Assembly: GCF_044324875.1 (NCBI RefSeq)
Contig: NZ_CP172185.1
Length of the DNA stretch: 64,000 nt
Strand: one strand, 5' to 3'
DNA from: Escherichia coli
GTDB taxonomy: Bacteria > Pseudomonadota > Gammaproteobacteria > Enterobacterales > Enterobacteriaceae
Program-made: the position numbers and the translations under genes
Notes under the pieces: generated by a model
What the model was told of the DNA's origin: nothing
Databases searched by the model: none
The model's input: the letters and a program-made list of their open reading frames with translations, nothing else
In this document: positions 11,088-63,990 of the stretch, piece after piece
Layout of the letters: each line of letters begins with the position of its first letter
Position numbering within the stretch: position 1 is the first letter of the stretch

Positions 11088-12281
11088 TTATTTCGTTTGT
11101 ACGTTTTTCTCCATAAGTGAATCAATGTAATCAGCGTACCACTGCATCATTTCACGACGTCCATCGAGATACAGGGCATGATTATAGGTACCCCTGATGG
11201 AGTTTTTATCCACATGCGCTAACTGCATTTCAATCCAGGCAGAATTAAAGCCCTGTTCGTGCAGAATTGTGCTCATTGTGTGACGAAAACCATGGCCGGT
11301 TGCTCTGCCATCGTAACCGATGCGTTTTAGTACCATATTGATGCTGGCTTCACTCATCGGTTTGTTAACATCGCAACGTCCGGGGAATATAAGGCGATAC
11401 TGCCCGGTAAAACGATGCAATTCCTGCAGCAGTGAAATGGCCTGGCGTGACAGAGGAACAATATGATGCCTGCGCATTTTCATTCGCTCTTCAGGGATAT
11501 GCCAGAGTGCGTTGTCAGAATCAATTTCTGACCATTCGGCCAGCCGCAATTCAATCGTTCTGAGTCCGGTCAGCATCAGCAGGCTCGTCGCCATACGGGT
11601 GACAGGACTGCCATGATAGTCAGCGAGCTTCCGGAGAAAAACAGGAAGTTCATCCGCTCTCAGATGGGGAAAATGTGCGGTTTTTGGTGCCGCCAGCGTA
11701 CTGGTCAGTTCTGATGCAGGATTGACAGTGGCACGTCCTGTGGCAATGGCATAACGGAAAATCTGATTGCAGTATTGACGGACCTTGCGTAATTTTTCCA
11801 GAGAGCCACGTTTTTCAATACGACGCAAAATCTCCAGCATTTCCAGCGGGAGGATATCAGTCACGCTCCGGTTGCTCAGATACGGGAAAACGTCTTTATC
11901 CAGCGCTTCCAGTACGCTTCTGGCGTAACTGTCAGACCATGATAAAGATTTATGATGATGCCATTCCATTGCGAGAGCATGAAAGGTGTTGGTGACAGAG
12001 ATTTTCTGAGAGAGTTTTTCCCTTCGCTTCTTTTCACCGGGATCTCCACCCTCGGATATAATTTTTCGTGCATCGTCGCGTCTGGTTCTGGCTTCAGCAA
12101 GGGAGACGTCAGGATAGACGCCGAGGGACAGTTTTTTCTCCTTTCCTGCTGTTCTGTACTTAAGGCGCCAGTAGCGTGCTCCCGTGGTTTTTACCAGCAG
12201 ATATAAACCACGTTCATCAGAAAGTTTATAATCTTTGTCTTTAGGTCTTGCCGTTTCGACCTGTCTGGCTGTAAGTGCCAT
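11088..12281 (-). CDS. P4-type tyrosine integrase (DUF4102 N-terminus)
   Basis: MALTARQVETARPKDKDYKLSDERGLYLLVKTTGARYWRLKY..., HGFRHT (HxxR) and ...IRGTYNHA (catalytic Tyr). Adjacent to the tRNA-Phe fragment. Start chosen at ATG 12281 rather than the upstream Met at 12311. Confidence 0.9.
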   Translation of the reverse strand: MALTARQVETARPKDKDYKLSDERGLYLLVKTTGARYWRLKYRTAGKEKKLSLGVYPDVSLAEARTRRDDARKIISEGGDPGEKKRREKLSQKISVTNTFHALAMEWHHHKSLSWSDSYARSVLEALDKDVFPYLSNRSVTDILPLEMLEILRRIEKRGSLEKLRKVRQYCNQIFRYAIATGRATVNPASELTSTLAAPKTAHFPHLRADELPVFLRKLADYHGSPVTRMATSLLMLTGLRTIELRLAEWSEIDSDNALWHIPEERMKMRRHHIVPLSRQAISLLQELHRFTGQYRLIFPGRCDVNKPMSEASINMVLKRIGYDGRATGHGFRHTMSTILHEQGFNSAWIEMQLAHVDKNSIRGTYNHALYLDGRREMMQWYADYIDSLMEKNVQTK

Positions 12282-12457
12282 ATGGGGGCCCCTTAAACTG
12301 ACCGAACACAATGAGCCCCCAAATGTGCCCCCATTTAATGCTTGATTCAGGGGGTGTTCAATAGAATTCGGTGGAGTTCAAAATGTCCGGAACGATTATA
12401 AATCAGTGATTATACATGAATTTCGTGGAGTGCGGGGGATGTGTGTAGAAGTGAAGG

Positions 12458-12511: not shown

Positions 12512-12558
12512 CATAATTGGCTGTGTCAGTTGGTTACACACCATTGAGGTGTGTACTA

Positions 12559-13437
12559 ATGAAAATACTGCCCGTTGTCTCCACAAAAGGTGGCGAAGGT
12601 AAATCAACACAATCCGCAAACCTGGCTGGTTTTCTCGCCGATGCAGGTATCCGTACCCTGCTGATTGACGGAGATCATGCTCAGCCCACGGCAAGCAACA
12701 TCTTTCCGCTGACATATGAAGCGTCAGCCGGTCTTTTTGAGTTGCTGATGCGCACGGCTGACCTCAGTCATCCCGATAACATCATTTCCCGCACGGCTAT
12801 CGACGGACTCGATCTGATAGTCTCCAATGACCCTCATGAGCAGTTAAAAACTGCGATGCTTCACGCCCCGGATGGTCGTCTGCGCCTCCGGAATGTCCTG
12901 CAGCATCCGCTTTTTCTGAACAACTACGATGTCATTGTAGTTGATTCTCAGGGAGCACGTTCTGTCATGCTCGAAATGATTGTGCTGTCGGCCACTGATT
13001 CGGTTGTCGGGATGGTCAATCCGGTACTCCCTGATGTGCGCGAGTTTATTCGGGGCACTGTCAATGTTATGGAGAACCTGCTGCCTTACCGGGAGCTGGG
13101 GATACCCCTGCCGAAAGTACGCACGCTGGTTAACTGCATGGATTATACGGCACTGGCCAGGAAGACGCTGGATGAGCTGGCCGGAATTATTCAGACCGGT
13201 CGTTACAGCAGACAGTTACCTGAAGGTGCGGTTTCCCTTCTTTCCACACAGATTTACGACCTGAATATTTACAAGCAGGGGCATGCGGCTGGTCAACCCG
13301 TACATCGTCTCGAAAAAGAATCCACACGTCGCAGTGATTCCGCGCTTGTCACGATGCACAGCCTGGCCTGTGAACTCTTTCCTGAGTGGAAACAGGCGTT
13401 TGACGGGCTGCTGGCGAACGGGGGAATACGTCAGTGA
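12559..13437 (+). CDS. parA: ParA/Soj-type partition ATPase
   Basis: MKILPVVSTKGGEGKSTQSANLA (deviant Walker A). Start only 47 bp from the tRNA fragment. Confidence 0.9.
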   Translation: MKILPVVSTKGGEGKSTQSANLAGFLADAGIRTLLIDGDHAQPTASNIFPLTYEASAGLFELLMRTADLSHPDNIISRTAIDGLDLIVSNDPHEQLKTAMLHAPDGRLRLRNVLQHPLFLNNYDVIVVDSQGARSVMLEMIVLSATDSVVGMVNPVLPDVREFIRGTVNVMENLLPYRELGIPLPKVRTLVNCMDYTALARKTLDELAGIIQTGRYSRQLPEGAVSLLSTQIYDLNIYKQGHAAGQPVHRLEKESTRRSDSALVTMHSLACELFPEWKQAFDGLLANGGIRQ

Positions 13438-14240: not shown

Positions 14241-14511
14241 GTTGCCATCCTCATCATGGTTGTTATCAATGCCGGACGGCAGTTGCTGATGATTTGTGTT
14301 CATAAGGTATTTCTCTTCGTAAACATGTTGATTATGAGCGCAAATATGCTGTACGTACCTTCTGACCGGGGTCGGCAAACTTACCGGTCGGAAAATGTAC
14401 AGAAAGTTATGGGCCTTTTATGCCCTGCAACTGTTCGTCCGGCACCCGTTTTCGTTTTTTTGCATGGTGGGTTTGCTGTGAAACAGGCTCCGTTTGCCCG
14501 GGAGGTGGCGT

Positions 14512-15900
14512 ATGTCTGAACGCTATATTCCACGCTCCGTTGATGCAGAGCAGGCCGTGCTGGGCGGCCTGATGCTCGATAATGAACGCTGGGATGAGGT
14601 GGTACTGATGCTCCGGGGGGAGGATTTTTCTCTGGCCGCACACCGGGTGATATTCCGCACCATGTCAGAGCTGGCAACCAGCGGTCAGCCGTTCGACCTC
14701 ATCACGCTGAGTGAGCATATTGAGAAAACAAACAATATTGAGGCACTGGGTGGTTTCGCTTATCTGGCTGAACTCAGCAAAAATACGCCTTCTGCAGCCA
14801 ATATTATCGCTTATGCCCGTATTGTTGCTGAAAAGAGCATGCTGCGTCAGTTGCAGGAGACGGGGAATGCGCTGATTACGGATGTGGCCGCACCGGATGC
14901 GACACCACGCACTGTTCTTGAATCCGCTGAACGTCGGCTCTTTTCACTTTCACAGACTGGCATGTTGCATGAGCGATGTGAAGTCAGTCTCACCTCGGCT
15001 ATGGAGCTGGCGCTGCGTCAACTGGAAGAGGGACTGAACGCCGGCGGGATGACGGGCACGCCCACGGGATTTGATGAACTGGATGAGATGACCTGTGGTC
15101 TGCAGCCCGGCGACCTCATTCTTCTGGCTGCACGCCCGTCTATGGGGAAAACAGCGCTGGGCCTTACCTTCTGTCTTAATGCCCTGTGTAACCGGACCGA
15201 TGAAACGGTATTTCTTTTCAGTATCGAAATGTCCCGGGAGCAGCTGATTCTGCGTGTCCTGTCAATGCTCTCCAGGGTGGAGCTGACACGTCTTCGCAGC
15301 AGCATGATGGATGATGAAGAGTGGGCGAGAGTCACGGCAACCATGGGACGCTTCATGAATGAAGCGTCATTCATCGGAGATGGAAACCGCCTGATAATTG
15401 ATGACACCTCCTTCCAGACGCCGTCATCGCTGCGTGCCAGCGCCCGTCGTTATGTCCGTCTGTATGGCAGACCTTCCCTGATAATGGTTGATTACCTCCA
15501 GCTGATTCGTTCTCCGGACCAGGAGAACCGAACGCAGGAAATTGCGGAAATATCCCGCGCCCTTAAGGCGTTAGGTAAAGAGCTGGGATGCCCGGTACTG
15601 GCACTGTCTCAGCTTAACCGTCAGGTGGAGCAGCGGGCGGATAAGCGCCCCAATAACGGTGACCTGCGTGATTCCGGGGCGCTGGAGCAGGATGCTGACC
15701 TCATTATGTTTATTTACCGTGATGAGGTTTATAACTCTGGCACGCTGGATAAGGGCGTTGCTGAAATCATTGTGAGCAAACAGCGGCAGGGGCCAACCGG
15801 AACGATACGGGTGAACTTCGACGGCCGCTACACCCTGTTTTCACCGTTTGAACGTGGATGGAATTTTGACCGTGCCGGAGGAAATGCGTATGTCAATTAA
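14512..15900 (+). CDS. dnaB: Replicative DNA helicase DnaB
   Basis: PRSVDAEQAVLGGLMLD N-terminus, Walker A ARPSMGKTA, IMVDYLQL, SQLNR, RDSGALEQDADL. Confidence 0.92.
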   Translation: MSERYIPRSVDAEQAVLGGLMLDNERWDEVVLMLRGEDFSLAAHRVIFRTMSELATSGQPFDLITLSEHIEKTNNIEALGGFAYLAELSKNTPSAANIIAYARIVAEKSMLRQLQETGNALITDVAAPDATPRTVLESAERRLFSLSQTGMLHERCEVSLTSAMELALRQLEEGLNAGGMTGTPTGFDELDEMTCGLQPGDLILLAARPSMGKTALGLTFCLNALCNRTDETVFLFSIEMSREQLILRVLSMLSRVELTRLRSSMMDDEEWARVTATMGRFMNEASFIGDGNRLIIDDTSFQTPSSLRASARRYVRLYGRPSLIMVDYLQLIRSPDQENRTQEIAEISRALKALGKELGCPVLALSQLNRQVEQRADKRPNNGDLRDSGALEQDADLIMFIYRDEVYNSGTLDKGVAEIIVSKQRQGPTGTIRVNFDGRYTLFSPFERGWNFDRAGGNAYVN

Positions 15901-17539
15901 ACGAAATCATTCCGTTGATCTGGGAGCTGCCATCATGCAACCGGGCCGTCAGACCAGCACGACGGGTAACGTGGTGGCGCTGGGGGAAACACCGATGATT
16001 CTGACGCTGGATCAACTGCGCCCCAACCCGGATAACCCGAGGACCACGCGTAATCCCCGGTACGACGATATTAAAAGTTCAATTTTCTCCCGTGGACTGG
16101 ATACGGTGCCCAAAGTCACCCGGATACCTGAGAGTGAGCCGGATATCTATATTTTCAGCGATGGTGGTAACACGCGATATCAGATCCTGAAAGAGCTGTG
16201 GGAGGAGACCGGCGATCAGCGTTTCTATCGTATTCATGTGCTTTTCAAGCCATGGCCGGGACGGCTTCAGTGCGTCATTGGTCACCTGGCTGAGAATGAA
16301 GTCAGGGGCGAACTGACGTTTATTGAAAAGGCCCGGGGTATCCATAACGCCCGGATGATTTATGAGGAGTCGATGCAGCGAACCGTGACGATCAGGGAAC
16401 TGGCGTCACTGCTGACGGATGAAGGACTTCCGGTAAGCCACTCATCTGTCAGCAGGATGGAGCATACTCTGAAATATCTGTATCCGTGGATCCCCGATCT
16501 TCTGGAATCAGGATTAGGAAGACCGCAGATCAATTCACTGTTGTCTCTCCGGCAGGATGCGGAACGCATCTGGGGACAGTTTGCGGTGGCAACAGAGAAC
16601 GGGGCGGATTTTGACCGCGTGTTTGGTGAATGCTGCAGCAAATTCAATTCACCGGAGCTCTGGTCACTGGAGATGTTCCGGGATGAGCTGATTGGTGATC
16701 TGCTGAAAGCGTTACCACATCCGGTGCTGGATTATGACCGCTGGTTGCTTGAACTGGATCCGCGGGAGCGTAACCGACGTCACCATTTTGGCGAACCTGA
16801 GCCGGTGCTCATTCCCGCAGACAGTGATGCGATGCCAGAGCCTGCGACTGACGGTGTGTCGGCAGTGACGGCGGAGAAGAACAGCGGAAGGGAGCAGTCT
16901 GTGATTTCCGCACCGGCTGACCATGACACAGTCATGAATACGGAGCAATCCCCGGCTGGAAAGGCGGAGAGTTCAGTTATCGAACAACGCGAAGAACGCC
17001 GTAGAAAGGAAGTCCAGCCGGATATGTATGGTGGTGAAGAAACATACAGCGGCGATTACGAAGAGGATGGCGATACCCGTGATGCTGCGGATCTGCCGGT
17101 AACGTCACCGGAAGAGGGGGCTCAGCAGAGCAGCGGTGAAATATTCAGTGAGCCGGTATTCAGTGTTGGTGAACTGGATGATATCGAATATCTGCAGAAT
17201 GAGGCATTTCACCTGGCATGGGAGCTGGCGTCACACACAGGCTGTGTCGATGAGCTGGCTATGGACAGGGAAAGCGAACTGTCTGCGGGATTCGGCGCGG
17301 CAGAGGCGAATTGTTCTCCGGTCATGGCATTTCTTGTCAGGCTGACCGGTGAGGAGGTTCTGCGGGTTAATCCGGTTTCTCTTGATGCACTGATGATTGG
17401 TGGCAGTACTGAAGAAGAGCCACCACTGCTGGATGATGAGCATGCCGGGAAGTTACTCCGTCTGCTTGGGGTGTTGCGTCGTCTGCGGGGGCTGCAGCGC
17501 CAGGTGGAAGAAGAGAACGTGGAGGGGCGTGATGAATAA
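15890..17539 (+). CDS. ParB N-terminal-domain protein (ICE PFGI-1-class ParB-like) with an acidic C-terminal half
   Basis: LDQLRPNPDNPR...FSDGGNTRYQIL motif. The start overlaps the dnaB stop. Confidence 0.8.
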   Translation: MSIKRNHSVDLGAAIMQPGRQTSTTGNVVALGETPMILTLDQLRPNPDNPRTTRNPRYDDIKSSIFSRGLDTVPKVTRIPESEPDIYIFSDGGNTRYQILKELWEETGDQRFYRIHVLFKPWPGRLQCVIGHLAENEVRGELTFIEKARGIHNARMIYEESMQRTVTIRELASLLTDEGLPVSHSSVSRMEHTLKYLYPWIPDLLESGLGRPQINSLLSLRQDAERIWGQFAVATENGADFDRVFGECCSKFNSPELWSLEMFRDELIGDLLKALPHPVLDYDRWLLELDPRERNRRHHFGEPEPVLIPADSDAMPEPATDGVSAVTAEKNSGREQSVISAPADHDTVMNTEQSPAGKAESSVIEQREERRRKEVQPDMYGGEETYSGDYEEDGDTRDAADLPVTSPEEGAQQSSGEIFSEPVFSVGELDDIEYLQNEAFHLAWELASHTGCVDELAMDRESELSAGFGAAEANCSPVMAFLVRLTGEEVLRVNPVSLDALMIGGSTEEEPPLLDDEHAGKLLRLLGVLRRLRGLQRQVEEENVEGRDE

Positions 17540-18263
17540 TGATGCAGCACGTCAGGAGCAACTGATTAAACGGATAAGAAAACTGCTGGCGCTGAGCCGG
17601 AATAACAGTAATCCACATGAGGCAGGTCAGGCTCTTTCCCGCGCACAGGCGCTGATGCGGAAGCATGGTATCACCGAACTGGATGCTGATATTTCGGTGA
17701 TAAAAACCTCATCATCAAAGGGAGCACCGTCAGAAGCGGAAAAAGTTCCGGTATGGATGGGGCGTCTTATGAATGTTGTTGCAGGGGCATTCGGATGCCA
17801 TACATACCTGGACTGGCGTATCACAACCGGAGGATACTGGCGGCGGATTGTCACATTTTATGGTTTTGGGGAGCGTCCGGTTGTGGCTGCGTATGCCTTT
17901 GATGTTCTCTGCCGGCAGATGCAAAAGGCGACAAAAGAGTATCTCTCAACCCAGAGCCGGAAATTAAAACACTCAACCCGTCGTGCAAGAGCTGCGATGT
18001 TTCGTGACGGCTGGGTTTATGGGGTGCGTGATGTGGTGGATGCATTCCGGCTCACGGAAGATGAGACGCGTGTAATGAATACGTGGCTGCAGAACCAGCA
18101 ATTTGAGGGAATGGTCGTCTTCCGGGAGGTAAAGGACTGCCATGGCGGTGACCATGCACGCTGGCAGGGATACAACGAGGGGAAAAAGGCAACGCTGAAT
18201 CACGGTGTTGGTTCCCGGGATCTGAGACCGGAAAGCCTGATATCGGGCGGAGGTGAGGTATGA
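17532..18263 (+). CDS. DUF2786-type protein (conserved ICE/plasmid protein)
   Basis: MNNDAARQEQLIKRIRKLLALSRNNSNPHEAGQALSRAQALMRKHGI is the typical DUF2786 N-terminus (memory). The ATG overlaps the upstream stop. Confidence 0.65.
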   Translation: MNNDAARQEQLIKRIRKLLALSRNNSNPHEAGQALSRAQALMRKHGITELDADISVIKTSSSKGAPSEAEKVPVWMGRLMNVVAGAFGCHTYLDWRITTGGYWRRIVTFYGFGERPVVAAYAFDVLCRQMQKATKEYLSTQSRKLKHSTRRARAAMFRDGWVYGVRDVVDAFRLTEDETRVMNTWLQNQQFEGMVVFREVKDCHGGDHARWQGYNEGKKATLNHGVGSRDLRPESLISGGGEV

Positions 18264-18838
18264 GTAACAACTTATCACAGGCCACCAACGGGCTGTTGAT
18301 GCAACTGGTGATGGATCTCAAGAGTGGCTATCTGCGGCGATGTGAAGCGCTGGGGCTTTCCCGGGAAGAAATGCAGATGCTGCAGGGGCTGAGCATTGAA
18401 GAAATTCACTATCTGTCAAATTCAGAAGTGTCGGTGCTGCGGCTGGATATTAACCACAACAATCTTGTGCGCATGTTGCAGCAGGCGCGGACTGAACAGA
18501 AACGTCTGCAGCGAATCGATCGCGCTCTGGCGCTGGGTGGGTCTATCGAACTCATGGCGTTTTATTTTGGTCTTTCCAGCGTGGATGTGGCTGCGCGGCG
18601 TCGTATCTCCGGTATTGATGTTCGTCCCGGAAGGGGGATCACCCTGAGTGACGATGAGAATTCTGAACTCTGGCGGTTGTGGCAGAAAGCCGGGATCAAT
18701 GATGTGGAGAGTGTGGATGGGCTGGATGTCATGATGCTTTGTGCTGAACAGATGAACATTCCACTGACGGCCATCTGGCATGCCGTCAGAGGGTGGCATA
18801 CAACCGGAAATCCGGATCAGGTAAGGAGTGCGTCATGA
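18260..18838 (+). CDS. DUF2857 / STY4526-YPO1902-family island protein
   Basis: Position after parB-like/DUF2786 and the sequence style match SPI-7-family islands (memory). Translationally coupled. Confidence 0.55.
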   Translation: MSNNLSQATNGLLMQLVMDLKSGYLRRCEALGLSREEMQMLQGLSIEEIHYLSNSEVSVLRLDINHNNLVRMLQQARTEQKRLQRIDRALALGGSIELMAFYFGLSSVDVAARRRISGIDVRPGRGITLSDDENSELWRLWQKAGINDVESVDGLDVMMLCAEQMNIPLTAIWHAVRGWHTTGNPDQVRSAS

Positions 18839-21725: not shown

Positions 21726-21943
21726 AACGGAAAATGCAGACAATTTCGGGTCCTGTGATTATCGACAGTAATGAGGTGACACAGTTTTACCCGGACCATG
21801 AAAGTGGAGGGGAACTCACCGCTGTTGAGTACCTTGCTGACGGGGGAAGAATCACCGCGAGGGTGAGGCACTCTTTTTATCAGGTTGCTGCGGCACTTGC
21901 CGGGGCATGGCGTGCGGATGATGCATCAAAAAGCGGTGGGTGA
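21722..21943 (+). CDS. Small hypothetical protein
   Basis: The ATG overlaps the upstream stop. 73 aa. Confidence 0.45.
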   Translation: MKRKMQTISGPVIIDSNEVTQFYPDHESGGELTAVEYLADGGRITARVRHSFYQVAAALAGAWRADDASKSGG

Positions 21944-22203
21944 GGACTGTGCCGGAATGATTGTCTGTTCCGAAGCTGCTGAGCCGCGACATAAATTTTT
22001 TATGTTGCGGTGAAGCAGCCGACAAACGAAGAGCGTCAGCGTATCAACAGTTAAGGAAAATATCTTCTGAAGCCGGACGCGACAGTCAGTCCGGTGGTGC
22101 TCGTGTGGTGAAGTGTTTAGCCTGCATCTTTGACAGGGTTCAGTTATAAGCATTTCGGAAACCGTTCCCCGGGGCAGTCTGCCGGGATTTAAGGAGTTTA
22201 TTT

Positions 22204-23469
22204 ATGGCGCTACCTGCAGAAAGCCTTATTGCGCATACGCTCAGAAAAATGAAGGCCAGCATGGCAGAGAAAGCCAGTCGTGAGGACGGGAGGATACGCA
22301 GTGGGCTGTTGTTTACCGGCAATGTTCACGATTCGTATCCCCGCAGGCTGTTGCTGGATACGCGCCTTTCTCCCCTTGATAAAACTGCGTGGATGATGAT
22401 TCGTCTGCATGCCCTGAATAATGAGGGCGCAGTATTTCCGACGTACGATGAACTGCAGTTACAACTGGCATCTCCCGGGCGCGGGAAGGCGTCCCGTGAA
22501 ACAGTGAGCCGGGTGCTGACAATGCTGCGGCTTACGGGCTGGCTGAGTCTGTGTAAGCGGGTCAGGGATGAAAAAGGGCGGGTCCGGGGGAATATTTACG
22601 CCCTGCATGATGAGCCACTGACCTGCTGTGATGCAGAAAAGTTTGACCCACGATACCTGGATATGGTTCTGGATACTGTGAGCAGGAGCCGGAACAAGAC
22701 AATCCGGCACACAGCCAGTGAAGTGCTCAGTGATATCAAAAATGAGCCCGGTATGCGGCATTACCACAGCCATATCACTCTGTTTGAATCGCGTATGGGG
22801 GCAGCACAGACACCTGGTCAGCTGGCGGCGCGTCAGCGGGTGAACCCGATGGTGAATGAAAACACAGGCAGAGAGAGTGGTTCGGATTCCGTACATACCC
22901 CTGCACCTGTCGTGCAGGTAAACGAACTCAGTGATCCATTAATCGAACTCAGTGAAAAACAGGAAATGAGCCCACTCAGTTCGGATTCCGTACTGCCTGA
23001 AAAATCAGCAACTTATTACTCGGTTCGGAAACCGAACAATTACGTACGTAATATCACACACAGTGTGATTAAAAATACGTACGTATTGCCTGAGTCGGTG
23101 AAATCGCAAATCAGCGCAGAAGACACGGACATGCTGACAAAACAACTGCAGGCGTTGCCGGAAGAACTGGCAGGTAGTGTGCTGAGCAGCCTGTTACAGA
23201 TGCTCAGCAAAAACACGCTCCAGAATCCGGTTGGCTGGATGCTGGCTGTGATGAAACTTGCGCGTGAGGGACGTTTTAATACGCCGGATATGTCCGTGCA
23301 TGAATCCCGGTCGCCAGCCCGTGCACCATATCAGCCTGTGTACAACCGTGATGAACGTGAACGTCGTCGCGGGAAAGTGGCGTCACCTGAAACGGTGAGC
23401 AACATTGTCGCAGAATTCCGGGCCAGCCTGAAACGTGCAAATGCTGCCCGTCTGGCGGCGCGTGTGTGA
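22204..23469 (+). CDS. STY4528-family island replication-type protein (winged-helix region in the N-terminal half)
   Basis: YPRRLLLDTRLSPLDKTAWMMIRL...FPTYDELQLQL...SRETVSRVLTMLRLTGWLS resembles a Rep/HTH DNA-binding module. Immediately followed by the iteron array. Confidence 0.6.
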   Translation: MALPAESLIAHTLRKMKASMAEKASREDGRIRSGLLFTGNVHDSYPRRLLLDTRLSPLDKTAWMMIRLHALNNEGAVFPTYDELQLQLASPGRGKASRETVSRVLTMLRLTGWLSLCKRVRDEKGRVRGNIYALHDEPLTCCDAEKFDPRYLDMVLDTVSRSRNKTIRHTASEVLSDIKNEPGMRHYHSHITLFESRMGAAQTPGQLAARQRVNPMVNENTGRESGSDSVHTPAPVVQVNELSDPLIELSEKQEMSPLSSDSVLPEKSATYYSVRKPNNYVRNITHSVIKNTYVLPESVKSQISAEDTDMLTKQLQALPEELAGSVLSSLLQMLSKNTLQNPVGWMLAVMKLAREGRFNTPDMSVHESRSPARAPYQPVYNRDERERRRGKVASPETVSNIVAEFRASLKRANAARLAARV

Positions 23470-23483
23470 TGGTTAAAAGTCAA

Positions 23484-23807
23484 TCTATGGCGCTACTGGC
23501 ACCATAGTACAAAAAATAAGCGATGGTGCCACTGGCACCATAGTACAAAAAATGAGCGATGGTGCCACTGGCACCACGGTATAAAAAATGAGCGATGGTG
23601 CCACTGGCACCACGGTATAAAAAATGAGCGATGGTGACGCTGGCACCATAGTACAAAAAATAAGCGATGGTGCCACTGGCACCACGGTACAAAAAATAAG
23701 CGATGGTGCCACTGGCACCATAGTACAAAAAATGAGCGATGGTGCCACTGGCACCATAGTACAAAAAATGAGCGATGGTGCCACTGGCACCATAGTATAA
23801 AAACGAA
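23484..23807. repeat. Nine tandem 36-bp iterons, each with the 19-bp palindrome ATGGTGCCAcTGGCACCAT plus an A-tract spacer
   Basis: Units start at 23484 (degenerate), 23520, 23556, 23592, 23628, 23664, 23700, 23736 and 23772. Consensus GCGATGGTGCCACTGGCACCATAGTACAAAAAATGA. Confidence 0.95.
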
Positions 23808-23935
23808 CGCAATTCATACGCTCAATCCCGTTAATTTTAAAAGGTTCAAATCTGTTTTCCTGTTGTTGTTAATCCGGTTCTTTCTGACGATCTCACACTC
23901 AACTGGTGTTATTTCTGGTACTGAGTGGAGGTCAT

Positions 23936-24616
23936 ATGACTGATGAGAAAAAGACTGAACCTGGCGTGTTAAAAAGCTCCCTGACAATTAATATTCACAC
24001 TTATTACGCTATTCGGTTGTGGAACGGTCGCAAGCCTGAGACTGGTGCTGATAAGTCGGAACGTCGGCGCAGGATCATTGGCATGCCCGGGGTTATTTCC
24101 CGTGCGGGTATCGCAACAAAAGATTCTGAGAACAATAATCCGTGGGCGGATGAATTTTTGTTCAGCCTTGAGGAAAAGCTGAATCACTCAAAGCAAAAGA
24201 TTAATGACCTGGTTGAGCAGTTAAATGATGTTTTACGGGATGTGCCAGGGGATATTTGTATTTCTGAAATATCATCAACCAGTCCAGTAAATATTGGTGT
24301 GCACAGTCGTTCACCTCTTGGTTACAAATGTGTATGGCTGCTTGTCGGGTACGATGAACTGGTGCTTAAAGCCTTTCAGGCTTTCCACTATGGACTGATT
24401 GCCCGATCACGTCGTGATGAAATACTTAATGCCGGAGGGCATGCTGTACGTCAGATTTGTGCTCTTGCCCAGGGATATAAAACTGTACCTGCAACGAGGG
24501 GTGATATTTCTTCTGGCTCACAAAAAGGAAAAGATGCGATCAGCCGCTATGGCATGCCTGATCCTGACATCCTTACCGGGAAGAAACGGTCCTCCTTTTC
24601 TGCACCGCTGAAATAA
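23936..24616 (+). CDS. PFL_4669-family ICE protein (conserved, function unknown)
   Basis: GGAGG upstream of ATG 23936. Position directly upstream of topB as in PFGI-1-class ICEs (memory). Confidence 0.5.
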   Translation: MTDEKKTEPGVLKSSLTINIHTYYAIRLWNGRKPETGADKSERRRRIIGMPGVISRAGIATKDSENNNPWADEFLFSLEEKLNHSKQKINDLVEQLNDVLRDVPGDICISEISSTSPVNIGVHSRSPLGYKCVWLLVGYDELVLKAFQAFHYGLIARSRRDEILNAGGHAVRQICALAQGYKTVPATRGDISSGSQKGKDAISRYGMPDPDILTGKKRSSFSAPLK

Positions 24617-24628
24617 TCTGGTAACTCT

Positions 24629-26647
24629 ATGCGTCTCTATTTATGTGAAAAACCTTCACAGGCCGCTGATATAGCCAGAGTACTTGGGGCTGCCAGACGT
24701 GGTGATGGTGCGATTGAAGGTAAGGACTTTGTTGTGACCTGGGCCTTTGGTCACTTGCTGGAGCAGGCGCCACCGGAGGCGTATGGTGAACAGTTTGGCA
24801 GCCCCTGGAAAATTGACGTTTTGCCGGTCTTTCCTAAACAGTGGAAGATGGTGGTGAAGGATAATGTCGGGAAGCAGTTTAATGTGATCAGCCGCCTTCT
24901 CCGTAAGACTGATGAAGTGGTGATTGCCACTGACGCCGATCGTGAAGGCGAAATTATCGCAAGGGAACTGCTGGATTATTGTGGTTATACCGGCGTTGTG
25001 CGCCGTCTCTGGCTGTCCGCACTGGATGAGAGCAGTATCAGGGAGGCGCTGGACAGAATACTGCCCGGAGAGGAGACCGAGAAGTTATATGAAGCCGGTA
25101 AGGGACGCAGCCGGGCTGACTGGCTGACGGGGATCAACCTGACGCGTCTGTATACCCTGAAAGCCAGGGGGTGTGGTGTGTCCGGCGTCCTCTCTGTTGG
25201 CAGGGTGCAGACGCCCACGCTTGCGATGGTGGTCAGACGGGACGCGGAAATAAAAAATTTTATTCCGGTACCTTACTGGCAACTGTATCTCTGGCTGGAG
25301 AAGGATAATGTGCGTTTTCGTACCACCTGGATTGCGGCAGCGCAGTACTGCGATACTGAAAAACGGTGTGTGAATGTGCAGGCGGCAACAGCCGTCCTGT
25401 CACAGTGTCGTCAGGCAGGTGTTGCTGTTGTCAGGGATGTCAGCAGCAGACGGGAGAAAAAGCAGCCTCCGCTGTGTTTTTCGCTCGGAACGTTGCAGGA
25501 GGTCTGTTCGCGCAAATTTGGCCTCGGAGCGCAGGCTGTTCTTGATATAGCCCAGTCGCTGTACGAAAAGCATAAGGCGACAACATATCCGCGTACAGAT
25601 TGCGGTTATCTGCCGGTATCAATGCACAAAGAAGTGCCTGACGTACTGGCGGCGCTGGAAAAAACCGATCCGGATATTGCCACGGAGCTGGCAAAACTCA
25701 GTCCTGATATTGTGTCGGGGATCTGGAACGACAGGAAGATCACCGCGCATCATGCGATAATCCCCACCCGTCAGCCGTTTAATATTGTGGCGCTGAGTGA
25801 TAATGAGCTTAAGGTGTACCGGTTAATTCGTCAGCATTATCTGGCTCAGTTTTTACCCATGCAGGAGTCGGATGTCACAGAGGCCACATTTCTTGTTGCG
25901 GGGCAGTTGTTCGGAACGCGGGGACGGGTGGAGGTTGTCAGGGGATGGCGTGCGCTTTTTGTGTCAGATTCGGCGGGAGAGGAAGAGGATGTTGCAGACG
26001 ATGAGCAGGCGATGCCCCTTCCCGTACTGGCAAAAGGTGATGAATGTCGTCCTGCTGAAGCTGAACTCAAAGAGATGCAGACCACGCCACCACGTCATTA
26101 TACGGAAGGCACGCTGATTGCGGCGATGAAAAATGCTGCGGGTATGGTGAGTGATCCGGCACTGAAAAAAGTGTTACGCGAAAATGCGGGGCTGGGTACT
26201 GAAGCGACCCGCGCAGAAATACTGGAAACGTTGTTCACCCGCAAATATATCGAGAAGCAGGGTAAGCATATCCGTGCCACGCAACTGGGGGCGGAGCTGA
26301 TAGCGGGATTGCCGGAGGCGCTGACCAGTCCGGGAACAACGGCGCTGTGGGAACAGGCTCTGGATGATATTGCACAGGGTAAACTGTCACTGTCGTCATT
26401 TATGGAGAAGCAGAAACAGTGGCTTAACCACCTGGTGGCCGGTGCAAGGCAGCAGCCACTGCAGATCACGGCACCGGTTACGCCTGCATGCCCTCTTTGC
26501 AGGGGAAGAATGCGGAAGGTGAAGATGAAAAGCGGGAAAGGGGAATTCTGGAGTTGTCAGCGTTATCCGGAGTGTAAGGGAGTGATTTCAGAGCAGAAAC
26601 CGACATCCGGGAAACGGGGCGGCAGAAAAATTAAAAAGCGTGGATGA
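24629..26647 (+). CDS. topB: DNA topoisomerase III
   Basis: TOPRIM MRLYLCEKPSQA and ATDADREGE. Active-site region TTYPRTDCGYL. C-terminal zinc ribbon CPLCRG...CQRYPECKG. Confidence 0.92.
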   Translation: MRLYLCEKPSQAADIARVLGAARRGDGAIEGKDFVVTWAFGHLLEQAPPEAYGEQFGSPWKIDVLPVFPKQWKMVVKDNVGKQFNVISRLLRKTDEVVIATDADREGEIIARELLDYCGYTGVVRRLWLSALDESSIREALDRILPGEETEKLYEAGKGRSRADWLTGINLTRLYTLKARGCGVSGVLSVGRVQTPTLAMVVRRDAEIKNFIPVPYWQLYLWLEKDNVRFRTTWIAAAQYCDTEKRCVNVQAATAVLSQCRQAGVAVVRDVSSRREKKQPPLCFSLGTLQEVCSRKFGLGAQAVLDIAQSLYEKHKATTYPRTDCGYLPVSMHKEVPDVLAALEKTDPDIATELAKLSPDIVSGIWNDRKITAHHAIIPTRQPFNIVALSDNELKVYRLIRQHYLAQFLPMQESDVTEATFLVAGQLFGTRGRVEVVRGWRALFVSDSAGEEEDVADDEQAMPLPVLAKGDECRPAEAELKEMQTTPPRHYTEGTLIAAMKNAAGMVSDPALKKVLRENAGLGTEATRAEILETLFTRKYIEKQGKHIRATQLGAELIAGLPEALTSPGTTALWEQALDDIAQGKLSLSSFMEKQKQWLNHLVAGARQQPLQITAPVTPACPLCRGRMRKVKMKSGKGEFWSCQRYPECKGVISEQKPTSGKRGGRKIKKRG

Positions 26648-26920: not shown

Positions 26921-27240
26921 CTAACTTGTCGCTCCGGCGACCACCAATGTTCCATAGTGGCCTGTGAGGAACGCCTTCGGGTGGCCCATGTCGCTTCAGC
27001 GACCACCAATGTTCCATGTGGCCTGTGAGGAACGCCTTCGGGTGGCCCACGTCGCTCCGGCGACCACCAATGCTTCATCTGACCTGTGAGGAGCGCCTTC
27101 GGGTGGTCAGTTTTACACCTCCTGAGCCTGAAAGGAGCTGTGCGTACTGAAGGGATATATTCCCGGAAGTACGGGCAAATCTGCACACCTTTGAGAGCAG
27201 ATGTCACTGCGGTTTTCCGTGATGATGAAGGCTTTTTTTA
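26921..27240 (+). ncRNA. Tandem-pseudoknot structured element, STAXI-like, copy 1 (three 61-62-nt units plus a conserved 3' tail)
   Basis: Units GTCGCTCCGGCGACCACCAATGTTCCAT.GTGGCCTGTGAGGAACGCCTTCGGGTGGCCCA repeat 3 times. Hairpin GTCGC/GCGAC plus GTTCC/GGAAC and CCACC/GGTGG pairings. Located between topB and DUF3577/ssb. Confidence 0.55.
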
Positions 27241-27357: not shown

Positions 27358-27822
27358 ATGTCTGCAACTAACTCTACTTCTGCAAAAACTGAATACTTCA
27401 ACCTGACCATGAAAGGTCTTGGGTATCTCAGCAATGTACGTCAGGTTAACCATCAGAACGGTTCGTTCCTCAGCTGTGTGATTAACGCACTGAGTGGACC
27501 AACGGACAATCCGTCCTATACGCGTTTTGATGTTACGGTTGCCGGTAAAGAGGCGACCACCCTGATCTCCCGCTGCCAGAAAGCAGTGGATGAGGACCGC
27601 AAGGTACTGCTTGGTTTTACGTTAAGCAACCTTGCCACCGACATTTTCACCCTGAACAAGGGGGAGCATGCCGGTGAGCAACGCGTCAGCCTGAAAGCCC
27701 GCCTGATCAAGGTGGACTGGATAAAAATAGGCCAGGAGCAGGTCTATAAGGCTGAAAAAGCGGAGTCCCAGCCACCGAGCCATGGCACCACAAAACGTGA
27801 ATACGCAGAAGACTCCTTCTGA
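27358..27822 (+). CDS. DUF3577 / STY4534-family ICE protein
   Basis: MSATNSTSAKTEYFNLTMKGLGYLSNVRQV... is the typical DUF3577 N-terminus (memory). Lies upstream of ssb. Confidence 0.6.
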   Translation: MSATNSTSAKTEYFNLTMKGLGYLSNVRQVNHQNGSFLSCVINALSGPTDNPSYTRFDVTVAGKEATTLISRCQKAVDEDRKVLLGFTLSNLATDIFTLNKGEHAGEQRVSLKARLIKVDWIKIGQEQVYKAEKAESQPPSHGTTKREYAEDSF

Positions 27823-28137: not shown

Positions 28138-28695
28138 ATGGCTTCACGTGGCGTAAACAAAGTTATCCTGATAGGACATCTGGGGCAGGATCCGGATATC
28201 CGGTATTTCCCCAATGGCGGTGGCGTTGTGGCGAATCTGTCACTGGCGACCAGCGACACCTGGCGGGATAAACAGAGCGGTGAAATGAAGGAAGTCACTG
28301 AATGGCACCGCGTTGTTCTCTATGGAAAACTGGCTGAAGTTGCCTGCGAGTACCTGCATAAGGGGTCGCAGGTGTATATAGAAGGCCAGCTTAAAACCCG
28401 TAAATGGTTTGACCAGCAGAATGGTGTGGACCGTTATTCAACTGAGGTTGTTGTGGGCGTGAATGGTGTCATGCAGATGCTGGGTTCATCGCGTCAGCAG
28501 GGCGCTTCCGGTAATGGTGCTTCAGCACCGGCACAAGGGGGCCAGGGACAGCCGCCGAAGACGACCGGACAGACTGGTCGTGCTACCCGGACAACTTCAA
28601 CAGGTAATGGTGCTCCACCTGTGGACTTTGACGATGATATCCCCTTTATGGGGATCGGGTATGGCATGGAACGGCGAATTATTCATGCCATGTAA
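28138..28695 (+). CDS. ssb: Single-stranded DNA-binding protein
   Basis: [20 protein letters not shown]...TEWHRVVL..., a Gly/Gln-rich linker and the C-terminal DFDDDIPF tail. Confidence 0.93.
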
Positions 28696-28741
28696 TATTA
28701 ACCATGGGGCGATACGCCCCACTTTTTTATCCGGAGGTTAC

Positions 28742-29734
28742 GTGAGTGAAAAAGTTAACAAAATCACTATGATTCATGACGGGGCGTTAAAGAAGACGCT
28801 TGAAGATCCCGCAGCAGTAAGGGACTTTCTTGAACAGGTCTTGACACACGATCAGATATCCCGCTGTAATCTTGATACAATAGAAGTTGAAAAGAATTCG
28901 TTCGTGACGGAAAGTTTGCGTCAGCATGCCTGTGATGTTTTGATCAGCATGAAGACAAACGACGGCAGGGACGGATACATTTATACCTTAATCGAGCACC
29001 AGAGTTCGCCGGATAAATTCATCCCGCTGCGTATGATGCGATATATCCTGGCTGTAATGGAGCAACATGTTGAAAAGCATAAGTGTGCACCTGTGGTGAT
29101 CCCCGTGCTGTTTTATCATGGTGCAGTGCGGCCATATCCGTATCCGCTGAACTGGGTGGATTGTCTGGATGACCCGGAGTACGGACGTGAGATTTATGGC
29201 GAGTCAAAGCCATTCAGTCTGGTGGATGTCAGTACGCTTGATGATGATGAAATTGAGCAGTATCGCCGGATGGCGGCGCTGATGTACACCATGAAGTCCG
29301 GAACTCAGGGTGATTTGATTGAGCTGATTGGTAAATCGATCACACTGACGGATAAGTATGGCAGCAGCGTTCACCTGAATACGGTGCTTACTTATCTGAT
29401 GGAACTTTACCAGATGGATGTTGCTGAACTTTTTGAAGCAATATCCACACACTATCCCAGCCACAAGGGGGTGATTATGACGATAGCGGAACAACTGGAA
29501 GAGAAAGGCCTTGAGAAAGGCCGTGCTGAAGGTCTTGCTGAAGGCCGTGCTGAAGGCCGTGCTGAAGGTCTTGCTGAAGGTCTTGCTGAAGGCCGTGCTG
29601 AAGAGCGTCAAAAAGCGCTTGCAGAAACCTATGCATCTGTCCGTCGCATGAGTGATATGGGGATGTCAACAGAAGTTATTAAGCAAGCTCTTCAGCTTTC
29701 TGATGAACAGATTCAGGAAGCGCTTAATAATTAA
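28742..29734 (+). CDS. Rpn-family recombination-promoting nuclease (YhgA-like PD-(D/E)xK)
   Basis: GGAGG then GTG 28742 (alternative ATG at 28769). HDGALKKTL, DVLISMKT...IYTLIEHQS, and C-terminal AEG[RL] tandem repeats. The longer track ORF from 28463 overlaps ssb and is rejected. Confidence 0.8.
   Translation: MSEKVNKITMIHDGALKKTLEDPAAVRDFLEQVLTHDQISRCNLDTIEVEKNSFVTESLRQHACDVLISMKTNDGRDGYIYTLIEHQSSPDKFIPLRMMRYILAVMEQHVEKHKCAPVVIPVLFYHGAVRPYPYPLNWVDCLDDPEYGREIYGESKPFSLVDVSTLDDDEIEQYRRMAALMYTMKSGTQGDLIELIGKSITLTDKYGSSVHLNTVLTYLMELYQMDVAELFEAISTHYPSHKGVIMTIAEQLEEKGLEKGRAEGLAEGRAEGRAEGLAEGLAEGRAEERQKALAETYASVRRMSDMGMSTEVIKQALQLSDEQIQEALNN
29477..29734 (+). CDS. Candidate nested in-frame small ORF (RpnS-type) inside the Rpn gene
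   Basis: AAGGGGGTG lies 4-5 nt upstream of the in-frame ATG 29477 (MTIAEQLEEKGLEKGRAEG...). Would give an 85-aa product. Confidence 0.4.
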   Translation: MTIAEQLEEKGLEKGRAEGLAEGRAEGRAEGLAEGLAEGRAEERQKALAETYASVRRMSDMGMSTEVIKQALQLSDEQIQEALNN

Positions 29735-58033: not shown

Positions 58034-58152
58034 TGCTTGTTGCTTGTTGCTTGTTGCTTGTTGCTTGTTGCTTGTTGCTTGTTGCTTGTTGCTTGTTGCT
58101 TGTTGCTTGTTGCTTGTTGCTTGTTGCTTGTTGCTTGTTGCTTGTTGCTTGT
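58034..58152. repeat. Perfect heptanucleotide microsatellite (TGCTTGT)x17
   Basis: 119 bp = 17 x 7, no interruptions. Lies 51 bp upstream of the methyltransferase ATG and 60 bp downstream of the ccdB-like stop (both genes on the minus strand). Confidence 0.98.
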
Positions 58153-60940: not shown

Positions 60941-61190
60941 TAACTGTCGCTTCGGCGACCACCAATGTTCCATGAGGCCTGTGAGGAACGCCTTCGGGTG
61001 GCCCACGTCGCTCCGGCGACCACCAATGCTCCATCTGACCTGTGAGGAGCGCCTTCGGGTGGTCAGTTTTACACCTCCGTAGCCTGAAAGGAGCTGTGCG
61101 TGCTGATGGGATATGTTCCCGGAAGTACGGGTAAATCTGCACACCTTTGCGAGCAGATGTCACCACGGTTTACGTGATGATGAAGGCATT
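60941..61190 (+). ncRNA. STAXI-like tandem-pseudoknot element, copy 2 (two units plus tail)
   Basis: Near-identical to 26921-27240 minus one unit. Same orientation. Confidence 0.55.
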
Positions 61191-63732: not shown

Positions 63733-63990
63733 GCTAACTTGTCGCTTCGGCGACCACCAATGTTCCATGTGGCCTGTGAGGAACGCCTTCGGGTGGCCCA
63801 CGTCGCTCCGGCGACCACCAATGCTTCATCTGACCTGTGAGGAGCGCCTTCGGGTGGTCAGTTTTACACCTCCTGAGCCTGAAAGGAGCTGTGCGTGCTG
63901 AAGGGATATGTTCCCGGAAGTACGGGCAAATCTGCGCACCTTTGAGAGCAGATGTCACTGCGGTTTTCCGTGATGATGAAGGCTTTTTTA
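63733..63990 (+). ncRNA. STAXI-like tandem-pseudoknot element, copy 3 (two units plus tail)
   Basis: Near-identical to copy 1 and copy 2. Same orientation. Close to the window edge. Confidence 0.55.

Follow-up and report, generated by a model that had tools for sequence, protein, structure and literature searches.

Palindromic repeats beside the STY4528-family gene of an Escherichia coli integrative and conjugative element are probable loading sites for a BisD-type ParB-like protein

A tandem array of palindromes lies between the Rep-like and acaB-like genes

The 64-kb stretch of Escherichia coli DNA analyzed here (contig NZ_CP172185.1 of assembly GCF_044324875.1, hereafter called the window) holds the left-end replication and regulation module of an integrative and conjugative element (ICE) of the SPI-7/pKLC102/ICEclc type. 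Within this module, an array of palindromic repeats sits between the gene of an STY4528-family protein, which we refer to as Rep, and the gene of an AcaB-like protein (Table 1). We propose, on the strength of comparisons between related elements, that the repeats are probably tandem parS-like ('bisS'-type) loading sites for a clamp that closes on cytidine triphosphate (CTP), namely, the ParB-like, BisD-type protein of the ICE itself, and that they serve promoter activation and possibly ParA-driven positioning. All coordinates are those of the window, and statements on the uniqueness of motifs and palindromes refer to these 64 kb.

Tandem Repeats Finder (TRF) reported a period of 36 bp at 23487-23803 (8.8 copies, 92% matches, no indels), and laying out the repeats in register gave nine 36-bp units from 23484/23487 to 23807. 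The Rep-like open reading frame (ORF; 22204-23469, 421 aa) ends 15 to 17 bp before the array. Each unit consists of a dyad, with a 17-bp core TGGTGCCA-C-TGGCACCA, and an A5-A6 tract located about 6 nt beyond it. In this, an earlier note on the same DNA was accurate: it had described nine phased units at 23484-23807, starting 15 bp past the Rep-like stop codon and each carrying an A6 tract. The core (TGGTGCCACTGGCACCA) is intact in seven of the nine units, while the longer 19-bp palindrome ATGGTGCCA-C-TGGCACCAT is perfect in four (at 23523, 23703, 23739, and 23775) and near-perfect in those at 23487, 23559, 23595, 23631, and 23667. The point variants listed in the earlier note are also present, that is, a right end reading ...CCAC in the units at 23559, 23595, and 23667 and an altered left arm at 23631; to these we add the first unit (23487), whose left arm is altered too (ATGGCGCTA).

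The earlier note had suggested looking for the palindrome elsewhere. Run on the window with up to three mismatches, such a search yielded 18 strand-matches against 0.03 expected by chance, all of them inside the array, and no symmetric TGNTG-N7-CANCA site was found outside it in the 64 kb. This confinement of the dyad to the array fits the expectation for a loading site or centromere.

As a side effect of the unit length (36 bp, or 12 codons), the array stays in frame and makes long repeat ORFs, seen on the minus strand at 23480-23817 of the window and in related loci (L001 3831-4415, L002 3820-4398, L004 3792-4757, and L086 8398-8832). RefSeq/PGAP calls such ORFs in relatives 'hypothetical protein', on either strand and with a length that scales with copy number; they are almost certainly annotation artefacts.

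Table 1. Coordinates of the array, its sub-features, and the surrounding genes in the window
Feature	Position	Strand	Basis or remark
Integrase	11088-12311	minus	
ParA-family ATPase, ICE left end	12517-13437	plus	Possible partner if the array doubles as a centromere; also PGAP annotation of relatives
SPI-7-type DnaB	14494-15900		
ParB family/BisD-type protein, 549 aa	15890-17539	plus	Proposed reader of the dyad; TIGR03764, 378 bits
Mosaic patch over the helix-turn-helix in the parB/bisD-like gene	16354-16590	plus	Versus SF-088; switches along with dyad type
Codon of His184, first recognition-helix residue (GLPV-S-H184-S-S-V-S-R-M)	16439-16441	plus	Best predictor of dyad base 3
DUF2786 protein	17397-18263		
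DUF2857 protein, BisC-type partner of BisD	18260-18838	plus	Pfam PF11198, E 9e-66; weak FlhD match; ICEclc bisD-bisC synteny
Small accessory genes	between 18838 and 22204		
STY4528-family 'pathogenicity island replication protein' (Rep), 421 aa	22204-23469	plus	NF040582, 387 bits
Three palindromes GTTCGGAWWCCGWAC (at 22880, 22979, and 23023) in the Rep linker-coding region	22880-23037	none	Candidate Rep sites
Tandem array, nine 36-bp units	23484-23807	none	TRF, unit layout, pattern statistics, homologous arrays in relatives
Perfect 19-bp palindrome, unit 2 (example)	23523-23541	none	Unit layout, pattern statistics
AcaB-family (PF08900, E 2e-74)/PFL_4669-family (TIGR03761) protein	23936-24616	plus	First gene downstream of the array
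DNA topoisomerase III (TopB)	24629-26647	plus	Right border of the swapped block
STY4534-family protein	27358-27822		
Ssb	28138-28695		

Related islands keep the position and form of the dyad while period and copy number vary

Our comparison took in about 90 related islands, and the 2 kb upstream of the acaB-like gene were inspected in 80 loci from one-per-species genomes as well as in E. coli and plasmid loci. In every relative examined, the array is located between the STY4528-family and PFL_4669/AcaB-family genes. Arrays with units of 36 bp or about three times that length (104 to 108 bp) occur with 2 to 26 copies in Salmonella, Erwinia, Pantoea, Kluyvera, Mixta, Serratia, Pectobacterium, Brenneria, and Xenorhabdus; where the tandem arrangement is missing, one to three sites of dyad plus A-tract are still present, 150 to 270 bp upstream of the acaB-like gene. 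The general form of the dyad is TG-N-TG-NNN-N-NNN-CA-N-CA, and both arms change together between elements. Its inner bases 6 and 7 vary even inside single arrays, several of which include asymmetric units (11/137 at position 6 and 10/137 at position 7). Joint change of the arms at these inner bases could reflect either concerted evolution of the units or palindrome-correcting template switching.

The period (36, 57, or 104 to 108 bp) and the number of sites (1 to 26) differ among relatives, and only one of three sub-units in the 104- to 108-bp units retains an intact dyad. The regular phase is explained by tandem duplication and, with period and copy number unconserved, is not evidence for a wrapped nucleoprotein complex. 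Such a complex had been read from the strict phasing in the earlier note, a step that we cannot follow given the different periods, the loci with just one to three isolated copies, and the 46-bp repeats reported for PFGI-1 (PMC2647930). Conservation of the array beside STY4528 homologues, proposed in the same place as a check, holds for position and dyad form and fails for number and phase.

Two further observations concern these relatives. In the 104- to 108-bp arrays (L093 10844-11650; also L041, L042, L051, L053, L058, and L060), the A-tracts persist and the intact dyads are spaced about 10 helical turns apart. For the Salmonella AcaB homologues of 330 to 350 aa, we had considered that the start codon was miscalled through the in-frame array, and dropped the idea since the N-terminus of P0055 is not repetitive.

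The closest counterpart with a published label is found in pKLC102, where 15.2 copies of a 57-bp repeat occupy the same position, between an STY4528-family and a PFL_4669-family gene, and share a core (TGGTGCCACTGGCACCA) identical to that of the window. While the window has nine 36-bp units with an A-tract, the pKLC102 unit is longer, GC-rich, and present in 15 to 16 copies. Klockgether et al. reportedly described in 2004 16 highly conserved 57-bp direct repeats as the origin of vegetative replication (oriV) of pKLC102, which, from position, period, and copy number, we take to be these same repeats. Judged by its sequence and setting, the window array is the enterobacterial counterpart of the pKLC102 'oriV' repeats.

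Similar descriptions exist for other members of the family. In PFGI-1, a putative oriV was placed immediately upstream of PFL_4669, with four 46-bp repeats containing a 21-bp inverted repeat and, in addition, four copies of the 23-bp palindrome CTGAGTTCGGAATCCGAACTCAGT (Mavrodi et al., PMC2647930); an oriV of this same type was assigned to ICEHin1056, SPI-7, and PAPI-1 (Juhas et al., PMC2258188). A review from 2020 still refers to the pKLC102 origin as 'postulated' (PMC7685784), and in the later literature on pKLC102, PFGI-1, and SPI-7, where the words are 'postulated' and 'putative', we found no experimental test of the array fragment as an origin. The array is already in the literature, under an oriV label derived from sequence features alone. 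The premise of the earlier note that a plasmid-like origin would be unexpected in these ICEs does not hold either, the region having been called a putative oriV since 2004 to 2009.

One residue of the ParB-like helix-turn-helix tracks one base of the dyad

For 47 dereplicated loci, we determined the mutual information (MI) between dyad base 3 and each sufficiently occupied alignment column of five proteins, 1,765 columns altogether (ParB-like, 390; BisC-like, 178; Rep, 349; AcaB-like, 209; TopB, 639). The top column corresponds to His184 of the ParB-like protein, with a normalized MI of 0.87; the runner-up, an AcaB column, reaches 0.63, and none of the 349 Rep columns is outstanding.

The relation between residue 184 and base 3 reads as a simple code that agrees in 52 of 54 typed loci: a His is matched by G (8/9), an Asn (11/11) or Asp (5/6) by C, and an Ala, Phe, Tyr, Lys, or Ser by T (28/28). 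Permutation gave p ≤ 5e-5 for this agreement, or 2e-4 for the 22 unique types of helix-turn-helix (HTH), values which overstate the significance in that related sequences are not independent. To our judgment, the pairing of His with guanine, of Asn or Asp with cytosine, and of a hydrophobic residue with the methyl group of thymine is chemically sensible. Translation confirms G179-LPVSHSSVSRMEH around His184, and the AlphaFold2 (AF2) model has a helix at residues 168 to 177, a turn, and a helix starting at 184, so that the second HTH helix has His184 at its N-terminus. In pKLC102, the ParB homologue shows the same S-H-S start of this helix, together with the dyad of the window, despite an overall identity of just 43%. 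For the inner dyad bases 6 and 7, the scan of the 1,765 columns returned no outlier column as a protein correlate. Whereas the pKLC102 repeats carry the oriV label in print, covariation here points to the ParB-like protein and not to Rep.

Natural recombinants switch the dyad together with the HTH

A comparison of closely related E. coli ICEs leads to the same protein. Residues 1 to 200 of Rep, winged-helix region included, are identical in the window, TUM1886, SF-088, and YZLc1-3, which nonetheless differ in their dyads (TGGTGCCA... in the window and TUM1886; TGTTGSCA... in SF-088 and YZLc1-3). The window and SF-088 have 100% identical DnaB proteins and 97% identity in both Rep and TopB. At the nucleotide level, identity of the window to SF-088 and YZLc1-3 is 97 to 100% up to the Rep stop codon, falls to about 50% across the array and the acaB-like gene (AcaB-like protein, 49%), and returns to 97 to 98% from the topB start on. 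From this sharp drop between the Rep stop and the topB start, it follows that the array and the acaB-like gene have been exchanged as a block.

A second patch of divergence, about 200 bp long, lies 7 kb from the array in the parB-like gene. Here, the window and SF-088 differ by 24, 22, 9, and 7 mismatches per 60 nt, compared to 0 to 3 in the flanks, and the affected segment encodes the HTH directly after the ENEVRG box. The same two places set apart Br_112 and SF-088, which are near-identical over 20 kb; their core genes differ only in the HTH bin (47 mismatches in 150 nt) and in the block of array and acaB. Nucleotide divergence in the HTH patch amounts to about 40%, in a gene that is otherwise 99 to 100% identical (window 16354-16590 versus L088; L093 3901-4050). 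A gene-conversion-like patch confined to the HTH segment implies recombinational swapping of DNA-binding specificity.

A third recombinant, 2013C-3033, separates the HTH from the acaB-like gene. Its AcaB-like protein is of the SF-088 clade (B-clade), with 81% identity to that of SF-088 and 50% to that of the window, while its ParB HTH is of the NHS type, as in FDAARGOS_1300 and JE86. Its units are TGGTGG-type in both dyad and spacer, the same as in the NHS-type, A'-clade elements, with one leftover TGTTGG-type unit beside the acaB gene; the recombination junction is inside the array. By these comparisons, the dyad goes with the ParB-like HTH and with neither AcaB nor Rep. The covariation and the HTH-only mosaic patches that accompany dyad switches mark the dyad as a putative site for the HTH of the cognate ParB-family protein.

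Genomes with two or three such ICEs offer a related observation. Their copies often differ in dyad and/or HTH type (about 6 of 10 genomes, a count made without a null model; the sets are L012/L038/L040, L046/L056/L057, L051/L055/L079, L050/L074, and L031/L048), which fits the existence of orthogonal specificity groups.

The ParB-like protein has the architecture of BisD from ICEclc

The ParB-like protein contains the CTP-pocket motifs G93-N-T-R96 (GxxR) and E135-N-E-V-R139 (ENxxR), both invariant in 18 homologues, and an HTH at about residues 166-195 that is modelled with a predicted local distance difference test (pLDDT) score of 85 to 92; it therefore combines the CTP pocket and the HTH looked for in a cognate protein. 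BisD of ICEclc, with 550 aa, has its corresponding motifs at G92NTR95 and E136NELR140 (PMC12409273), so that the motifs are almost co-numbered in two proteins of 549 and 550 aa. The gene order of ICEclc, parA-shi-bisD-bisC(DUF2857-type)-orf96323-orf95213-inrR...ssb, also finds its match in the window, with a DUF2857 gene two genes downstream of the parB-like gene and the synteny parA...bisD...bisC...STY4528-like...ssb; this likeness in architecture is judged from overall length and gene neighbourhood. In addition, the same element encodes a ParA-family protein, a possible partner should the array also act as a partition centromere.

Work on ICEclc provides the precedent for what such a protein may do. 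BisD forms foci on two bisS palindromes (GAGCTATCCCCnGGGGATAGCTC) in inrR and ssb and gives its maximal chromatin immunoprecipitation signal there (Antar et al. 2025, PMC12409273). It hydrolyses CTP with bisS DNA present, spreads over about 50 kb along the direction of transcription, and together with BisC activates 11 transfer-competence promoters, whereas it does not bind the palindrome CTTCGGAtTCCGAAG inside orf96323; a partition role is discussed only (PMC12409273). That paper makes no mention of pKLC102, SPI-7, or oriV, and we found no other paper linking BisD to these repeats.

Like the window array, bisS is an odd-centred palindrome (11-N-11) that is unique to its ICE, lies within 1 to 2 kb of the equivalent position, and heads co-directional core genes, in an element of the same family and gene order. 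In contrast, bisS consists of two single 23-bp sites inside inrR and ssb, and the window sites are intergenic and arranged in tandem, with nine copies here and as many as 26 in relatives. For the ICEclc sites, binding by BisD has been demonstrated; for the window dyad, the comparisons presented above suggest it.

Homology searches with the proteins of the module added little. Searched against PDB sequences, a profile of the ParB-like protein retrieved KorB only (E 0.32), and the AcaB-like protein, queried both as a single sequence and as a profile, gave only chance matches, as did Rep (ABC-transporter, protein A). The AF2 model of Rep has a pLDDT of 51 and its fold search was uninformative, and PHROGs returned unannotated families only.

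A separate palindrome cluster resides inside the Rep gene

A different cis element became apparent within the Rep ORF, where GTTCGGAWWCCGWAC occurs at 22880-22894, 22979-22993, and 23023-23037, and a weaker copy precedes the Rep start codon at 22153-22167. These account for 7 strand-matches versus 0.58 expected, and the rest of the window is free of the motif. Of the palindromes of this kind counted in 78 loci, 227 are within Rep genes and 12 outside them, a difference in density of about 257-fold; 75 of the 78 loci have two to six copies each at Rep codons ~215 to 275, and pKLC102 does likewise. Rep itself has an N-terminal winged-helix-like region, and the palindromes fall in its poorly conserved part, which is predicted to be disordered (residues 207 to 290). 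The motif is the same as in the 23-bp palindrome of PFGI-1 and in 'bisS-3' of ICEclc, the one left unbound by BisD.

Should the STY4528-family protein act as an initiator or regulator, the palindromes in its own ORF would be better candidates for its sites than the array. We regard them as a separate cis element that is a candidate for Rep binding sites or for an origin inside the gene. The lambda ori lies inside gene O, and the TTCGGA-N-TCCGAA cluster within the Rep ORF resembles this arrangement.

Alternative roles of the array

The earlier note had left the choice between an oriV and a centromere. Its centromere-type reading is largely supported, in that the repeats are putative dimer-binding palindromes covarying with the ParB-like HTH, both across genera and in the E. 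coli recombinants; its oriV reading, with Rep acting on iterons, is not supported. In such an iteron-type oriV, the STY4528-family Rep would bind the repeats and open the DNA for theta replication of the excised ICE, which is the interpretation given in the literature for pKLC102, PFGI-1, ICEHin1056, and SPI-7 (PMC7685784, PMC2647930, PMC2258188). The array does begin 15 bp past the Rep-like gene, NCBIfam names the family 'replication protein', the module also encodes DnaB, TopB, and Ssb, and it recurs on records deposited as plasmids. Moreover, as many as 30 copies per chromosome have been reported for pKLC102 (PMC7685784), whose repeats are postulated as its oriV, and because pKLC102 does replicate, the oriV reading keeps some probability. 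Yet the covariation expected of repeats and their initiator is not seen: Rep residues 1 to 200 stay the same across differing dyads, and the scan brought up no outlier Rep column. Iterons of iteron plasmids are usually asymmetric and bound by Rep monomers, whereas the units here are palindromic. Neither period nor copy number is conserved, many relatives being single-site, and Rep has a conserved palindrome cluster of its own. There is no DnaA box (TTWTNCACA) in 22000-24600, the nearest one (24644) lying inside topB, and no marked AT-rich stretch, with GC content reaching a minimum of ~39% in 120-bp windows. Iteron origins of theta plasmids likewise have direct repeats beside or inside an initiator-like gene; the window array comes without a link to Rep, DnaA boxes, or a clear unwinding element. 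Replication of excised ICEclc, for its part, depends on the TraI relaxase and oriT1 (PMC6561031). Altogether, we consider it unlikely that the array is an iteron origin.

The acaB-like gene downstream suggests another function, namely, an operator through which the AcaB homologue, with its ribbon-helix-helix-like fold, would regulate its own operon by cooperative binding to the repeats. The gene is a clear PF08900 member, AcaB of IncC is a DNA-binding activator with a ribbon-helix-helix-like fold (PMC8373056), and single-copy relatives still have the dyad 150 to 270 bp upstream of the acaB-like start. The joint exchange of array and gene, sharply delimited by the Rep and acaB stop codons, would also agree with an operator, but adjacency alone explains this co-transfer. 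The type of site does not follow the AcaB allele: B-clade AcaB is paired with A'-clade-type TGGTGG units in 2013C-3033, where dyad and spacer follow the ParB HTH, and pKLC102 has the dyad of the window at 30% AcaB identity. Together with the lower MI of the best AcaB column, these two cases weaken the idea of an AcaB operator, which we hold to be quite improbable; AcaB might be a co-factor. Least probable of all, to the point of being very doubtful, is an element that acts through its own structure, as a hairpin or cruciform in single-stranded transferred DNA or in RNA (a single-strand initiation site, a terminator, or a protein-sponge RNA). Since both arms change together among relatives, stems would persist, and the sequence of the minus strand resembles a hairpin and a subsequent T-run, with 11 terminator-like sites in a lenient scan versus 2.1 expected. 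However, the most systematically varying base covaries with a residue of a protein, several arrays contain the asymmetric, mispairing units described above, and the T-run begins 6 nt past the stem and is absent from the pKLC102 units. No gene on the minus strand converges on the array, no sigma-70-like promoter was found in 21900-24100, and no Rfam family reached its gathering score, there being only chance matches such as plant miRNA models (21 to 27 bits versus gathering scores of 80 to 113).

The loading-site reading has its own difficulties, which should be set against it. The AF2 model of the ParB-like protein, covering its N-terminus, is poor overall (pLDDT 52) and confident only over residues 150 to 190; its fold matches rank Noc and ParB at the top but are non-significant (E 0.17 to 0.25), and a Pfam scan of the protein detected no ParB domain. 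Besides the relatedness of the sequences, the covariation has two exceptions, L025 (DHS with TGTTG) and L066, and the GTGTGCC-type dyads of Xenorhabdus fall outside the simple code. In two of the three recombinant comparisons, the acaB-like gene was exchanged along with the array, and the AcaB-like protein may have a role at the array. The bisS sequence of ICEclc is unrelated to the window dyad, and its copies are single and inside genes, with no tandem array. Nor does the loading-site reading account for the A-tract, conserved in enterobacterial units and lacking in the GC-rich pKLC102 unit. Lastly, a BisD site would be compatible with replication starting nearby.

A model for BisD-type loading at the array

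With the array as loading sites, we envisage the following series of events. A dimer of the BisD-type protein would bind each 17- to 19-bp dyad through its HTH, and the third base of each half-site would be read by His184. Closure into a CTP-bound clamp would follow, by analogy with ICEclc BisD, and the clamp would slide downstream with transcription into the acaB-like, topB, ssb, and transfer genes, where it and the DUF2857/BisC-type protein would switch on transfer-competence promoters. The same protein-DNA complex may give the ParA ATPase a handle to position the excised circle. Tandem duplication and slippage would vary the number of sites, from 1 to 26 in relatives, with phase being no functional requirement. 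A use of the dyad as a regulon-wide activator box of the BisDC type was considered and rejected, as the dyad occurs only in this one array of the window.

Known systems resemble this proposed arrangement in part. In the sopC centromere of the F plasmid, SopB binds a 16-bp inverted repeat that is present in each of 12 tandem 43-bp repeats. This centromere parallels the window array in its tandem units, each with one dimer-binding palindrome for a ParB-family protein, and in a copy number that for sopC is dispensable and variable. Unlike the window array, which is 6 kb from the parB-like gene, sopC directly follows sopB and serves partition with SopA, and the proposed reader in the window would, by its likeness to BisD, carry an extra activator domain and work with a BisC-type partner. 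The outer bases of the dyad half-sites resemble chromosomal parS (TGTTNCACGTGAAACA), with TGTTGCCA-G-TGGCAACA in many relatives. KorB, with the OB sites of RK2, is cited in PMC12409273 as a clamp of the ParB family that controls distant promoters. As opposed to parS and the OB sites, with their even 16 bp, the window dyad has 17 to 19 bp with a central unpaired base, and it is tandem and not dispersed.

A wider generalization, which we offer tentatively and would not rate as likely, is that the postulated 'oriV iterons' of pKLC102/PAPI-1/SPI-7-type ICEs are expandable BisD loading arrays throughout. Coupled switches of HTH patch and dyad would define orthogonal groups through a code of one residue and one base (His-G, Asn/Asp-C, Ala/Tyr/Phe-T), insulating the bistable transfer switches, and possibly the partition, of co-resident ICEs, and copy number (1 to 26) would tune clamp loading. 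What appears to be new is the reassignment of the repeats to a BisD-type protein as its loading sites, along with a rule of one residue for one base and specificity switches that occur in nature.

Members of the pKLC102/PAPI-1/ICEclc/SPI-7 family of ICEs disseminate genes for virulence, resistance, and catabolism among Proteobacteria, and their repeat region has long been carried as a putative origin. Should the reassignment be true, the search for the real origin of the family would move to oriT and the relaxase or to the palindromes inside the Rep gene. Clamp-and-slide activation as in ICEclc would extend to enterobacterial pathogenicity islands, with its cis site identified, and the simple recognition rule would come with natural variants for specificity swaps and for studying cross-talk of co-resident ICEs.

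Distribution of the module and other repeats in the window

DNA related to the module is present in 109 of 5,426 complete E. coli genomes, in every case on the chromosome. The combination of ParA, DnaB, ParB, Rep, array, AcaB, and TopB is also found on 49 records deposited as plasmids of 70 to 850 kb, among them NZ_CP061051.1 (pSGI4) and NC_019202.1 (pKLC102). Their hosts are Citrobacter, Salmonella, Pantoea, Erwinia, Pseudomonas, Marinobacter, Vibrio, and Shewanella, and some of the records represent circular forms of ICEs.

Three further repeats were seen in the window. A 61-bp repeat (GTCGCTCCGGCGACCACCAATG...GGAACGCCTTCGGGTGGCCCA) is present in two to three tandem copies at each of three sites (26927-27106, 60946-61062, and 63741-63857), the first of which is the spacer between TopB and the STY4534-family gene; this spacer also diverges between ICEs that are identical elsewhere. 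A 12/24/36-bp coding repeat, (AAGGCCGTGCTG)n, spans 29505-29626 within a 423-aa ORF (28463-29734). Finally, TRF detected a perfect 7-bp microsatellite, (TGCTTGT)17, at 58034-58152 (100% matches), possibly a slippage-prone phase-variation tract.

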